From: Leucoraja erinacea
Lineage: Eukaryota
Reading direction: 5' to 3'
DNA: 64,000 bases
Assembly: GCF_028641065.1 (NCBI RefSeq)
Contig: NC_073380.1
Location: forward strand, 65,906,001-65,970,000
The notes below the pieces were generated by a model that was not told where the DNA came from, did not search any database, and worked only from the letters and a program-made list of their open reading frames with translations. The translations under genes were made by a program, and so were the position numbers. Every line of letters begins with the position of its first letter. Within the stretch, counting starts at the first letter, position 1. Positions 42,610 to 49,553 of this stretch are shown one piece after another.

Positions 42610-43165
42610 TGACAAAGATATTGTCAGAACTGGAAGGACTGAGTTATGAGGAGAAGTTGGTTTGGATAGGACTTTATTCCTTTCAGCACAAGAGGCTGAG
42701 GGATGCTCTTATAGAGGTGAATAAAATCATGATGGCAATAGATAGGGAGAATGCATATAATCTTTTTTCTCAGGAGAGTTGTATCAAGAACTGGAGGCCA
42801 AAGGTTAAGATAGGATGTAATAAGATCTTAGGTACACAAAAAAGCTGGAGAAACTCAGCGGGTGCAGCAGCATCTATGGAGCGATGGAAATAGGCAACGT
42901 TTCGGGCCGAAACCCTTCTTCAGATAATAAGATCTTGATGGGCAACTGTTTCCACACAGAGGGTGGTGAGTATATGGAATGACCTGCTAGTACAGGTACA
43001 ATAACAACATATAAAAGTCATTTGGACAGGCAGACAGATAGGAAAGAGGCTTAGAGGAATCTGGGCCAAATGCAGGCAAATTGAACTAACTTAAATGTGG
43101 TATCTTGGTCAGCATGAATGAGTTGGGTCACATGGTCTGTTTCCATGGTGTATGACTATCTAACT
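42610..43165 (+). mobile_element. CR1 3' fragment containing a nested Penelope-type insertion
   Basis: LEGLSYEEKL...RLRDALIEVNKIM; resumes after the duplication at 42925-42936. Confidence 0.8.
42830..42924 (-). mobile_element. 95-bp Penelope-type insertion with intact hammerhead core and 12-bp TSD
   Basis: TSD taataagatctt at 42818-42829 and 42925-42936; minus strand begins tCTGAAGAagggtttcggcccGAAACGTT. Confidence 0.8.
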
Positions 43166-43392
43166 CTGTTAAGTAACTGAAAACAACTCAGATATCCTAT
43201 TTTGCATGGTTCGATACATGTGCTTGGGGCAACACATTTAATTGTTGAGCTGTATGGTATGTCTTGATCCTGACTGTAGATGAATTAACAATTTAAATGC
43301 TATTATAGCCAAGTGTCGTTTTTGTCTTTCAAATGGAAATGAAATAAATGTCCCAATTATATATGTGTACACAACAGTTAACTTTCATATCA

Positions 43393-44265
43393 TGATGAGA
43401 AGGCTTACAGGAAGGAGATTGAGCACTTCTTCTGGGGCCAAGAAAATAACCTTTCCCTAAATGACAGCAAGACAATGGAGATTGTGATTGACTTCAGGAA
43501 GCGAAGCAGTACACATAGCCTGCAAAGCAGTACATATACACTGACAGCACCAAAGTTGGGATGGTTGAAAGCTTCAAGTTCCTAGGAGTAAATATCATCA
43601 ACAACTAGTCCTCGACCAGCCATATTGAAGCAATGGGTAAGAAAGCACACCAACACCTCAACTTCCTTAGAAGGCTCAGGAAGTTCAGCATGTCTACAGC
43701 AACTCTCACCAACTTCTACAGATGCGCCGTAGAAAGTATTTTATTGAGATGCAGCACAGCAGGTTTGGGAACTGTTCCATCCAAGACCGCCAGAAATTGC
43801 AGAGAATTGTGGATGCAGCCCAGACCATAGTGACAACCAACCTCACTCCCATTGATTCCATCTGCACTTCATGCTGCCTTCGCAAGACCACCATCATAAT
43901 CAAGAACCAGTCTTATCCTGGACACTCCCTCTCCTCCCTTCTCCCATCAGGCAAGAGGTACAGGAGTGTGAAAACGCACACCTCCTCCAGATTCAGGGAC
44001 AATTTCTTCTCAGCTGTTATCAGATAAGTTTATCATCCTATCACTAACTAGAGAGTGGTCCTGACCTGCCATCTACCTCATTGGAGACCCTCAGAATATA
44101 TTTTATCGGAATTTACTGGACTTTATCTTGCACTGAACACTATTCCCTTTAACTTGTATCTGTACACTATGCATGGCTTGATTTTAATCATGTATAGTCT
44201 TTCTGATGACTGGATGGCTCACAATAAAAATGCTTTTCATTATAACTCGGTAAACCAAAAACTAT
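43393..44265 (+). mobile_element. Rex1/Babar-type LINE 3' fragment
   Basis: FKFLG, KKAHQHLNFLRRLRKF...FYRCAVESIL, LPSGKRYRSVK; 3'UTR shared with 28050-28190 and 62700-62915. Confidence 0.8.
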
Positions 44266-46345: not shown

Positions 46346-46724
46346 CGCCGTCTCCGTACGTTTCCACGCCGTATCCATCCTGCAGCCCGTTGTTCCATGT
46401 GCCCTCGTACCTGGCCGGGCTGTTGAGACTCTGGCGGAGCCCGTACCTGCCCTTGAAGCCATGGGTCCACTCGCCGCGGTAACGCCAGCGCCCCTTGGTC
46501 TCTACCCCCAGCCCGTGGCGCTTGCCCTGGTTCCAATAGCCCTGGTAGGTGTTGCCGCTCGGCCAGGTGTACACTCCCACCACCTCGAAGCCGTGCGCCC
46601 AGGAGCCGCTGTACTCGCCCTGGCCCTTTGGCCCCGTACAGATGCCGTGGCCGTGGGCTTTGCCGTCTTCCCAGCCGCCGCAGTAACTCCCGCCATCATC
46701 GAAGTCGAACCTTCCTCCAGTCAT
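46346..46724 (-). CDS. jph1: Junctophilin-1 coding exon 1 (N-terminal MORN repeats)
   Basis: Translates [42 protein letters not shown]...[14 protein letters not shown] at 46724; 379 nt ending at a G|GTGAGT donor (phase 1). The MTGG start and exon 2 sequence fit JPH1 rather than JPH2-4. Confidence 0.96.
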
Positions 46725-49421
46725 GCATGAAACGGTGCGACCGGATCGCAGAGCGACTGCAAGCGGGCTCGGCGGCGGCGGCGGCGGCGACAGCGGCAGC
46801 AGCAAAGAACCCGGGGCGGGGGGCAGGAACCAGCGTGAGTCCAAGGAAAGTGCGAGCGGCGTCTGACTAGAAAGAACGCCAGCGAGGCGGGATCACTGAC
46901 TTTAACTGGAGAGATTGGCGGGGGAGGCGGGCTCGTCAGCGACTGGCGAGAGCGGGGAGAAGGCGGGCACAGAGTCTGAGAGTCTGGGGAGACAGAGAGG
47001 CGGCTACAGCCGCTGGAGACATTGGAGAGGGGGAGACACGGGAACGGTCTTGAGACTGGAGGGAAGGGAAAATGGGATTGGGCATAGACATTGGAGACTG
47101 GGGTGGACACTTGGGGGGGAGGCAGGTGCAGGGCAGGCAATGGAGTGGGAAGTTGGTACAGCGAATGTGAAAACGTGGTGGACGGTAATGAGGAGGGTCA
47201 GATACAGGTACTGATACACTGGGATGAGAGGTCGGTATCTCATGGGCATTCTATGTCTGTATCTGTATCTTGACGTGTAATCACCATCACTGGTTGGTAT
47301 TGGGACTGGAGAGTGGGAGATACTGGTATATGAGTAACACAGGAGTGAAATGGATATGGAATCTGGGGAGATAAGATGGAAACCGGGACTGGGGGGAAAT
47401 GGGAAGAGATTGGCTCAAGGGACAGAGCCGTGACACGGGGTTGAAGAGAGTGAGTGCAGAGGCAGAGAATGGGGGGGGGGGGGGGGGGGGGACTGTAGAT
47501 GGGGAGAGAGGTAGCCAGGTTGTAGGGGATGATAGGGCGGGGGCTGGATACATAAGACAGAGATGCGCACGGAGACACGAGATGAGGCTGGATGAGAGAC
47601 AGGGAGGGATGGTGGCACAGAAGAGGGTGCTTCGTGGGGAACAGGAACGTGTGGGAGGCGGGCATGGGCTGTGGGGAAATGGGAGCTTGGCACGGCGTGT
47701 GGCGTAGGAGAGAGATGGGCGCATGGGATTGGATACATTGGGAAAGGAGACGGGGTGACAAACTCATGAGATTGAGGAAGGGGCAAGGACCATTGGCATA
47801 GAGATTTCAAAGGACTGAACACAGATAGTGGGTGGGCGCTGAGACTAAGGACTAATGAGGGATCGGAGGAACGGAGTCTAGAAAAGGATGAACCAATAGT
47901 AAATAACTTGTGGAGGAAAACAGCACATGATGTTTAAACCGAAGATAGACACCAGCTTTTTGTGTCTACTAAATAATTTGGTTGAGCATAGATCTCTGTC
48001 CTGTGTTTCTAAACCAGGACCTACCACCCCCTACAATCTGGCTCTCTCTCTCCCCCATCTACAGTCACGAGGTTGGTACACAGACTGATATATTGATATA
48101 GGAATCTGGGGAGGGTTACATTGGTAGACATAATGGAGGCTAGAAAAGAGGATGTACGCGAGCTGCGATGATCGGCAAGGGCGGTGGAGCAAACAGGCAG
48201 ACAATTGGGTAAAGTGAAAGATGGCTGGAAGGAGAAGGGTCTCAACCTGAAACCACCAATTCCTTCTCTCCGGAGATGTTGCCTGTCCTACTGAGTTACT
48301 CCAGCGTTCTGTGTCTATCTTCGGTGTAAACCAGCATCTGCAGTCCCTTGTTACAAATTGAATTGCTGGATAGCAGGCACACCAACTAGATGAGGCCAAC
48401 ACTAGAGGTAACGACTGAGACGAAGGCGTGGCGGTCGAAGAAAGGGTGACTGAGGGACCTGTTTGTAGTGAATGAGAGAGGGTCATGCCAACCTGGCACA
48501 AAAATAATCAGGAGAGCACACATCACTTGAAGGTGTGATGGAAAAATGAGAATGCACAGAAGCGAAAAATGGAGACGAAGAGTCATCGGAAGTATAGTAA
48601 AGAACAAACGAGGAAAAAGACGATAAACTAAACAAACTATTTAAACAGCTAACATTTAATGTTTAAACGGCATTTAAGGTTTAAAGGTTTGTTTGCAGAC
48701 ACCATTGGAAATGCGAATTATAGCAAAGATCAAGAGGAAGAATGGAGAGGGGGTGGAGGTGTAACTTTGCAAAGATATAACAAGGGAGAGGTCACCCCGG
48801 ATGGGTTGCCTTAGAAAAGGGCATGGGAGGGGGGGGGGGGGGGGGGGGGGGGATACGACAGCTAACAAGATGGGTGGATACAATTTGAAATTAATATTGG
48901 AGACTGGGTACAAAATATGAAATCCACTGGAGAATGAATATAAGCTTCACTTGGACAGTCCCTTGGGATTGAGGATGAGTTTCACTCCAGTTCTGAGAAG
49001 TGGAAGATGCCCGTGGGTGAATTCTCACCAAGCGTTACCAAAATATAGAATGTTGTTTTAATTCTTAGATAAGGTAATTTCAAGTTCTGGCATCAATAGG
49101 AATATGCAAACTTTATTTCGCAAGATAATTACTCATCGTGTGTGTAGGCAACTGAATGCCTACGCGGCCATCGATGGTGCAATTAATTTTCAAAAAGTTA
49201 TTCAAGACTCTCCAGTAAATATGGACATTACACTTTTTAGGAAACGTCAATTTTCCCAACGATTTCAACCGGCGTTCTTGCAATTGTTTGTTGGTTAATT
49301 TTATGACACAATTAACTTTTAATGTGCAAAGCCAAAAGTAGGGCCCTTTATCACTTAGGGCACCTACTGAGAATATTGCCTACATCTACGTTCATCTATA
49401 CCAATTTGCAAAAGGAATCTG

Positions 49422-49553
49422 TTCAAGAAGGAACTGCAGATGCTGGAAAATCGAAGATACACACAAATGCTGGAGAAACTCAGCGGGTGCAGCAGCATCT
49501 ATGGAGCGAAGGAAATAGGCAACGTTTCGGGCCGAAACCCTTCTTCAGACTCT
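49422..49553 (-). mobile_element. 132-bp Penelope-type insertion with 8-bp TSD
   Basis: TSD ggaatctg at 49414-49421 and 49554-49561; nearly identical to 42834-42924 over the shared part. Confidence 0.8.
49518..49551 (-). ncRNA. Putative minimal type I hammerhead ribozyme motif
   Basis: agu CUGAAGA a GGGU-UUCG-GCCC GAAA CGUU gcc: conserved core boxes, stem II with UUCG loop, palindromic AACGUU in place of stem III. Activity not shown. Confidence 0.6.

Follow-up and report, generated by a model that had tools for sequence, protein, structure and literature searches.

Short repeats carrying a minimal hammerhead ribozyme motif are dispersed through a 64,000-nucleotide stretch of the Leucoraja erinacea genome (NC_073380.1, positions 65,906,001 to 65,970,000; hereafter the window, in whose coordinates all features are given). 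What minimal hammerheads do in Penelope-like elements (PLEs) is still open, and the locus raises the question of how such small units were made and whether the ribozyme had any part in it.

Short insertions and their hammerhead motif

The first-pass annotation described two near-identical insertions flanked by target site duplications, and both hold up. Copy A (42830-42924, minus strand) is a tail-less pseudo-LTR unit running from -1 to +93 relative to C3 (position 42923), between exact 12-bp duplications at 42818-42829 and 42925-42936. Copy B (49422-49553, minus strand) is a tailed unit, from -3 (plus 2 extra nucleotides) to about +128, between exact 8-bp duplications at 49414-49421 and 49554-49561. 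The two are 96% identical over 95 nt. Copy C (11328-11434, plus strand), annotated as a third insertion with a mutated GAAA box, is tail-less, belongs to a second subfamily, and extends from -2 (plus 9 extra nucleotides) to +95; it is 82% identical, its GAAA box has decayed to AAAAA, and its 15-bp duplication (11313-11327 and 11435-11449) carries one mismatch. As had been claimed, one end of each copy lies close to the CUGA box; its distance from C3 is 1 nt in A, 5 nt in B, and 11 nt in C. A fourth copy (62245-62324, minus strand), tail-less and beginning within stem II (about +14 to +17), has 7-bp duplications at 62238-62244 and 62325-62331. Target duplications of variable length (12, 8, 15, and 7 bp) are thus found at 4 of the 12 window loci. 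When random intervals were examined for exact repeats hugging both ends with a 5-nt tolerance, repeats of at least 8 bp occurred in 20 of 5,000, repeats of at least 12 bp in 6 of 5,000, and 7-bp repeats in 76 of 5,000. No empty, preinsertion site was found in the public run data.

A profile built from copies A, B, and C gave 16 matches at the 12 loci, or one unit per 5.3 kb, and recovered all nine decayed relatives listed earlier; the reversed window returned a single match (E = 0.97). The description of the family as very abundant is likewise supported. Two of the loci are decayed head-to-head inverted pairs, one at 13682-13889 (joined at -2/-3, with a tail on the minus arm only) and one at 1228-1453 (joined at about -2, with a clear tail on the plus arm and a doubtful one on the minus arm). 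Decayed tailed copies lie at 48231-48357 (plus strand; 5' end near the CUGA box, an uncertain placement), 28466-28570 (minus strand; beginning at about +12, without the CUGA box), and 32581-32680 (plus strand; beginning at about +29, the only copy to do so near the cut site). The remainder include an internally deleted fragment that begins at C3 (54914-54963, plus strand), a tandem of 2.5 units of 66 bp built of +20 to about +88 and lacking the CUGA box (55826-55995, plus strand), and a fragment that shares the junction of this tandem (53895-53938, minus strand). An 8-nt match at 17280 was set aside as chance.

On the minus strand, copies A and B both read CUGAAGA-A-GGGU(UUCG)GCCC-GAAA-C-G-U-U, and the core of copy A is intact. 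In copy B, the minimal type I motif occupies 49519-49550 (minus strand): helix I pairs 49550-49549 with 49520-49519, followed by the CUGAAGA box (49548-49542), the extra A (49541), stem II (49540-49529), GAAA (49528-49525), the palindromic C-G (49524-49523), and UU (49522-49521), with the predicted cut site between 49521 and 49520. Helix I has two base pairs in copy B and a single pair (U-G) in copy A; the published motifs shown in Fig. S3 of PMC4209133 mostly have 3 to 6 bp, and some have 2 bp. A and B agree at every position with the PLE consensus drawn from that figure (CUGANGA-H, stem II opened by G-C, GAAA, palindromic N15.2-N16.2, and UH), and this position-by-position fit supports the annotated PLE-type minimal type I hammerhead. 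A descriptor of the full minimal hammerhead matched only A and B in the window, which count once because they belong to one family, and it found any match in 11 of 300 window shuffles. The bare pattern CTGANGA..GAAAC was not above chance, with two or more occurrences in 35 of 100 shuffles.

The annotation had also held that the lack of a covariance-model hit would refute its proposal, and Rfam indeed gave no hammerhead match in the window at E up to 5 or on 49480-49600 at E up to 10. We do not take this as a refutation, because variants of this kind, which have no helix III, were discovered by means of a dedicated descriptor (PMC4209133). All four common subfamily differences within the motif (stem II U-G to U-A, a loop change, U17 to C, and G1.1 to A) preserve the fold; they are one-sided or in loops, with no two-sided change among them.

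End positions and the origin of the units

The annotation named end points randomly distributed along a long Penelope consensus as a refutation; the ends of the units are not randomly spread. Among 12 classed 3' ends in the window, one of them doubtful, five are tail-less at +93 to +96 and six are tailed at +118 to +128. The optional tail of about 33 nt lies at 49420-49452 in copy B (minus strand), and base pairing is predicted between the first part of this tail and +48 to +55 of the body. Contigs of public runs X1, X6, X7, and X21 break at 49420 and at 49458-49465, with AT-rich, unrelated flanks. An optional tail of 30 to 40 bp is known from PLEs (PMC8557442, PMC3846280) and has been tied to two reverse transcriptase (RT) start sites downstream of the hammerhead (PMC11167929). 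The family thus presents a feature of EN+ PLEs, namely, 3' ends of two classes separated by about 33 nt, together with an inverted tail joined to the 5' end. Among the best 15 of 105 joints, opposite-strand joints linking 49452 or 49456 to 49551 with no shared letters occurred in all three DNA runs and in one RNA read.

At the other end, of the 10 classed loci, 7 begin at -3 to 0 (5 by a strict count), and three begin inside the unit. The chance of such clustering, were ends uniform over 100 nt, is about 2e-6 (2e-3 by the strict count). Clustering just before CUGA is seen also in contigs from three species. Among the best 24 of 899 loose ends, breaks at 49550 with unrelated T-rich flanks numbered 245, 174, and 226 in three DNA runs. 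The largest pile, at 49551, is partly forced, since copy B itself stops matching the family there. The predicted cut site lies 28 nt downstream of the 5' end cluster, and a smaller peak there may exist beyond these best 24. Regarding the run data as such, summed contig depth was about a million times that of the flank, which is no measure of copy number. RNA mates fell nearly evenly on both strands (2,480 versus 2,706 at the peak), figures that are silent on depletion of sense copies.

On balance, we favor the reading that the discrete units of 95 to 130 nt are solo PLE pseudo-LTRs, probably produced by internally started reverse transcription that ran off the 5' end of the RNA, which would likely be the transcription start. 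Judging from the Anolis PAc element, a GIY-YIG/RT protein would nick both target strands, and cDNA would be primed at one of two internal sites, the tail being the sequence between them. Three bases before CUGA, the A of an initiator-like TCAGTCT may serve as the Pol II start. This candidate start is a 7-nt match to the initiator consensus, and its letters come partly from a weak loose-end consensus (agreement, 0.35 to 0.40). If transcription began in the 5' repeat copy, or if a solo unit were transcribed, the resulting cDNA would be only 95 to 130 nt long, and priming on both strands would produce the head-to-head pairs as well as the tail that is inverted at the 5' end. The ends would not be made by cleavage; the core would be maintained only in master elements, its activity there depending on a second copy and probably on the protein, and would decay in inserted copies. 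Counting against this reading, Table S1 of PMC4209133 together with PMC2377424 places the transcription start of D. virilis 125 nt upstream of C3, and three classed loci begin inside the unit.

We also entertain, tentatively, a stronger version, in which the solo pseudo-LTR is itself a self-propagating, Pol II-transcribed micro-retroposon of about 100 to 130 nt with its own start immediately ahead of the hammerhead and two RT start sites of its own, multiplied to very high numbers by a Penelope enzyme, and in which the hammerhead serves as a 5' structural or protein-binding element and not as a cutter. If so, the copies would record run-off cDNA ends and thereby map the transcription start and both priming sites of a PLE in a vertebrate.

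The structure of the unit points to a Penelope-type RT/GIY-YIG enzyme, as the annotation had suggested; the link to an autonomous partner element is inferred. No RT/GIY-YIG frame flanked by the repeat was found in the window by six-frame search for PLE motifs or by Pfam on 137 open reading frames of at least 80 amino acids, which returned domains of LINE, DIRS-like, and MORN type only. Searching longer proteins with the translation of the unit, a weak test, gave 26 candidates, none significant. Rfam found no tRNA or 5S match on the unit, and pattern scans of viral, metagenome, and prokaryote contigs each found 0 loci, the outcome to be expected of a vertebrate repeat. A 26-codon frame in copy B, with its AUG at about +50 and running through the tail, was discounted because it is closed in the 48231 copy.

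Alternatively, the copies could be plain 5' truncations of long PLE RNAs, made from the same two RT starts, with RT stopping or being resolved at the point, just upstream of the core, where the template becomes C-rich; such a process would require neither a promoter nor a short master. We consider this less likely. PLE insertions are normally 5' truncated, and single minimal hammerheads have been read as truncated PLEs (PMC4209133, PMC8969392). In addition, 3 of the 10 classed loci are cut shorter still, and some copies elsewhere in the genome run on upstream, in contigs with GATG plus G-rich letters (plus strand), which makes the short unit the end of a longer family. However, none of the 12 window loci shows the upstream continuation (decayed versions could escape), ends are confined to a 4-nt window, and the inverted-tail joints fall precisely at -3, without shared letters.

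A retrozyme-like cycle, in which the hammerhead cuts tandem transcripts, unit RNAs circularize, and a PLE enzyme copies the circles, is the annotation's proposal in its strong form and would account for the fold-preserving subfamily differences and the tandem derivative at 55826-55995. It would also fit the existence of non-LTR retrozymes, proposed PLE derivatives reported in one chondrichthyan genome (preprint 10.64898/2026.07.22.740005). We nevertheless regard it as improbable. The copies are neither permuted nor cut at +28 but hold the whole core at the 5' end, the tandem derivative lacks CUGA, and the go-back joints among those listed from DNA runs link 49538-49549 to 49508-49514 and not the cut site. 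Furthermore, helix I has only 1 to 2 bp, and the active dimer is predicted by structure evaluation to lie 16.1 and 18.5 kcal/mol above two monomers, in energies that leave out tertiary contacts and protein help.

It is slightly less probable again that the 5' boundary is a 3' splice site (a pyrimidine tract and CAG before UCUGAAG), with copies derived from spliced or splice-stalled RNA. An AG at -3/-2 does follow a C-rich tract, the D. virilis intron ends 5 nt before C3, at helix I (PMC2377424; PMC4209133, Table S1), and motifs illustrated in PMC4209133 have U-rich 5' flanks. Splicing would, however, leave a shared upstream exon, whereas B and C have unlike extra bases (2 nt and 9 nt, respectively) and the flanks at 49550 have no consensus; splicing would also remove the G at -2 and the A at -3, one or the other of which many ends retain. 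Lastly, an unrelated short repeat with hammerhead boxes by chance, which the Rfam result, the commonness of the bare pattern, and the lack of a stable fold (z = -0.68) might suggest, is hardly credible, as the descriptor rate in shuffled 64-kb windows amounts to about 1e-4 for one 130-nt repeat, and the tail, inversions, and duplications are independent PLE marks.

Activity of the ribozyme and the setting in a junctophilin gene

Returning to the solo pseudo-LTR reading, the ribozyme is likely a passenger in the short insertions, because their ends lie just before the motif and not at the cut site. The idea that it shapes the copies or is required by them is not supported: no end was mapped to the cut site, one duplication-flanked copy begins within stem II, and decay of the core after insertion is neutral. 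Variation at the core CpGs G12 and G16.2 amounts to 5 to 10% of depth, compared with 4.5 to 8.4% at four other CpG sites. Given this decay, the short helix I, and the predicted cost of the active dimer, ribozyme action in solo copies appears unlikely.

Copy A, annotated as in sense with jph1 intron 1, lies in sense within the intron that follows the first coding exon of a junctophilin gene, likely jph1. That exon lies at 46346-46709 (minus strand), with the intron donor at 46345, and the next coding exon, with MORN repeats, at 20882-21642 (minus strand; far end approximate), with a probable acceptor at 21643-21644. The best solved match was junctophilin-1, at 269 bits versus 257 for junctophilin-2. 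A role for the ribozyme in the intronic copy is not supported, given that its helix I has 1 bp and that the portion of the gene within the window holds no intact sense partner, and the copy is probably harmless to its host gene.

Dispersed single PLE hammerheads were described as early as 2014, and the minimal motif is not new either; only for the fixed 5' end did we find no published description. Tens of thousands of near-identical short copies with mappable ends amount to a natural experiment on the role of the hammerhead. Their ends agree with the in vitro result for PAc, with two internal RT starts and dispensable cutting, and the skate family adds a sharp 5' boundary just before the core.

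Comparison with known systems

The minimal type I hammerheads of metazoan PLEs (Cervera and de la Pena 2014, PMC4209133), as presented there, share with the skate motif the core, the extra nucleotide before stem II, G10.1-C11.1, and the palindromic C-G that replaces helix III, and they too are mostly dispersed single copies. A 2-bp helix I is also given for Culex, D. virilis, and Oikopleura; the skate helix is at the weak end. The skate family differs in host, as the rows listed in Fig. S3 of that report include no cartilaginous fish, and in its fixed 5' end at -2/-3, which we did not find described there; no linked reading frame was found for it in the window.

Animal non-LTR retrozymes (PMC7229834; preprint 10.64898/2026.07.22.740005) resemble the skate units in being noncoding and PLE related, in carrying a type I hammerhead, in existing as monomers, and in having longer duplications. 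They are, however, defined by tandem units that each bear a hammerhead and yield circular RNA, whereas intact skate cores in the window are monomeric only. The window holds no tandem units with a complete hammerhead, the sole tandem (55826-55995) lacking CUGA, and no circular-RNA junction at the cut site was among the joints listed from one poly(A)-selected RNA run of a relative, of which 6% was read.

Likeness is also found in EN+ PLEs (Arkhipova et al. 2013, PMC3846280; Craig et al. 2021, PMC8557442), whose head-to-head inverted repeats, palindromic junction, tail on one arm, and 8- to 10-bp target duplications all have counterparts here, and whose pseudo-LTRs suffice for mobilization in trans. 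In A. vaga, solo pseudo-LTRs are few and lack duplications, whereas the skate solo units have duplications and occur once per 5.3 kb. The Poseidon element PAc of Anolis carolinensis (Frangieh et al. 2024, PMC11167929) is autonomous and experimentally tested, whereas the skate family is known from sequence alone, and the PAc reading frame begins at stem II, where the matching skate frame is closed and lacks an AUG. Mutants of the PAc hammerhead insert normally, and no reads end at its cut site (PMC11167929). In PAc, as in the skate family, the hammerhead lies about 100 to 130 nt before the end of the element, two ends are separated by a 30- to 40-nt tail, a stem-loop is predicted at the start sites, and the cut site is not used as an end.

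Insertions and family copies in the window

The three short insertions reported by the first-pass annotation were all found at their places. Copy A (42830 to 42924, minus strand) and copy B (49422 to 49553, minus strand) are flanked by exact target-site duplications (TSDs) of 12 bp and 8 bp, respectively, and copy C (11328 to 11434, plus strand) by one of 15 bp with one mismatch; flanking repeats of at least 8 bp occurred at 20 of 5000 random intervals, and of at least 12 bp at 6 of 5000. A family profile built from these copies gave 16 matches at 12 loci, recovering all nine decayed relatives that had been named, and the family occupies 1444 of the window's 64000 bases. 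The copy at 62245 to 62324 also carries a TSD (7 bp), making it the fourth. Copy A does lie in sense inside a junctophilin intron, as had been proposed; the intron spans 24.7 kb between two junctophilin coding exons (limits inferred from GT and AG), and the exon product matches junctophilin-1 best. By the resemblance of its repeats, the host is probably a cartilaginous fish. We regard the insertions as real and largely explained.

The TSD of copy C (11313 to 11327) itself includes CTGAAGAA, the same as the first box of the hammerhead motif, perhaps by chance or through homology-aided joining. Other elements in the window included a near-complete DIRS-like element that lies within the junctophilin intron in the orientation opposite to that of the gene (36900 to 41000, plus strand), with a 323-aa first frame, broken reverse transcriptase (RT) frames, an open 325-aa tyrosine recombinase frame, and a Dam-methylase-like frame (E 3e-4); the second reading frame of a LINE (4886 to 8391, plus strand; AP endonuclease, RT, and zinc-binding end), split into three long frames; and a CR1-like RT fragment (3474 to 4451).

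Ends of the unit and the origin of its 5' limit

Positions are counted from C3, the C of the CUGA box. The 3' ends in the window fall into two groups, +93 to +96 (copies A and C and the loci at 62245, 13889, and 55995) and +118 to +128 (copy B and 48357, 32680, 28466, 13682, and 1453), with the arm at 1228 doubtful and two fragments left unclassed. In folding predictions, the 33-nt extension, or tail, base-pairs with the body, with 8 of 8 pairs for copy B and 6 to 8 of 8 across the six tailed copies. At two loci, two copies meet head to head at the CUGA box, and the pair at 13682 to 13889 has the extension on one arm only. Of the 5' ends, classed without two tandem-type loci, 7 of 10 lie at -3 to 0 (5 of 10 without two decayed cases) and the remainder at about +12, +14 to +17, and +29; the family continued upstream at none of the 12 loci. 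A 66-bp tandem derivative without the CUGA box (55826 to 55995 and 53895 to 53938) has an identical junction at both loci and thus may form a family of its own.

We compared 49240 to 49740 at 88% likeness with 4 of 24 listed public runs, three of them DNA contig sets (organisms A, C, and D) and the fourth poly(A) RNA reads from organism D. The unit matched 87690, 92644, and 54931 contigs (A, C, and D) and 6967 of 7335232 RNA reads, and the flanks were at single-copy depth. As expected for copies within host transcripts, 96% of the RNA reads continue into unlike sequence. The loose-end rows listed (24 of 899) show breaks with unrelated flanks at 49420 (319, 257, 279, and 875 in the four runs), at 49458 to 49465, and at 49550 (245, 174, and 226 in the DNA runs). 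A pile at 49551 (426, 368, 409, and 1004 among these rows) combines true ends with longer copies running on into GATG and G-rich letters, and is partly forced because copy B ceases to match the family there. Opposite-strand joints of 49452 or 49456 to 49551, with zero shared letters, were present in 1 to 5 contigs of each DNA run and in one RNA read; we read these as an inverted tail fused to the 5' end at -3.

One contig of organism D spans the right junction of copy B by 36 letters, so organism D shares this insertion; no empty site appeared among the 15 of 105 joint rows listed. In each of the three DNA runs, numerous contigs jump back from ~49540 to 49508; this 33-nt tandem duplication comprises stem II, the GAAA box, and the cut site but lacks CUGA. 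One contig of public run X7 goes back from 49548 (the unit's 5' end) to 49414 (the start of the left TSD), which may reflect a tandem duplication of locus B in that organism (D).

We favor run-off at the RNA 5' end as the source of the 5' limit, because copy B and the upstream consensus letters read TCAGTCT, with A at -3, which we take to be an initiator-like 7-mer, and because promoters of Penelope-like elements (PLEs) sit within the pseudo-LTR (pLTR). Such promoters are described in PMC2377424 and PMC3846280. The whole chain, in which a PLE protein would prime at +95 or +128 and synthesis would run off the RNA 5' end, is in our judgment rather probable. Counted against it are the shortness of the initiator-like match, the coverage of the end tables (24 of 899 loose-end and 15 of 105 joint rows), and the D. 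virilis start, which lies 125 nt upstream of C3 (PMC2377424, PMC4209133). Biased truncation at a C-rich tract could set the limit instead, which we consider possible and somewhat unlikely. It is very doubtful that ribozyme processing sets it. None of the loose-end rows listed (24 of 899) lies at the cut site, and no pile-up of molecule starts or ends was reported over 49240 to 49740 in the four runs. A splice acceptor is about as doubtful.

The hammerhead motif, its predicted fold, and its decay

An Rfam search, the covariance-model check proposed for the motif, gave no hammerhead match; we do not read this as a refutation, because such variants have no helix III and were discovered with a dedicated descriptor (PMC4209133). 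The bare box pattern is frequent by chance; within the window a full descriptor matched only copies A and B, and 11 of 300 shuffled windows gave any match. There is no position at which the motif departs from the minimal PLE hammerhead consensus (Fig. S3 of PMC4209133). Counted from C3 at 49548, the cut predicted for copy B falls at +27/+28, between 49521 and 49520. Copy B has a helix I of 2 bp, and copy A has a single U-G pair. In monomers, stem II is predicted to form with a probability of at most 0.08, and the two-molecule active fold is predicted at +18.5 (B) and +16.1 (A) kcal/mol relative to two free monomers, energies that leave out tertiary contacts and proteins. In copy B, a predicted pairing (probability ~0.6) between the end of the tail (49422 to 49431, minus strand) and the CUGAAGAAGG region (49539 to 49545) would join both ends and mask the core.

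All four common subfamily differences within the motif in the public runs preserve the fold, which suggests selection on master elements, but none of them is two-sided. By contig depth, a rough measure, CpG variation reaches 5 to 10% at two core sites and 4.5 to 8.4% at four sites outside the core. Since core and non-core CpGs vary alike, the core of inserted copies is not protected and decays neutrally.

Comparison with Penelope-like elements

A 2014 study (PMC4209133) described single minimal hammerheads dispersed in the thousands, which were interpreted as truncated PLEs, and PLE-related retrozymes are reported from one chondrichthyan (2026 preprint 10.64898/2026.07.22.740005). Our literature search found no published description of this family and no published fixed 5' end before CUGA; so abundant a repeat is probably already catalogued in Repbase and Dfam.

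Because the window contains no PLE reading frame, we assign the unit, read as a solo pLTR, to PLEs by architecture only. The termini of PLEs with a GIY-YIG endonuclease are described as having an optional 30- to 40-bp tail at either end, head-to-head inversions, variable TSDs, and a minimal hammerhead (PMC3846280, PMC8557442, PMC4209133). The purified protein of the Anolis element PAc cleaves and extends both strands, its reverse transcription begins at two internal sites ~110 nt past the hammerhead, the PAc tail is the stretch between these sites, and insertion proceeds normally when the hammerhead is mutated (PMC11167929). The geometry of our unit matches that of PAc, as described there, to within ~25 nt.
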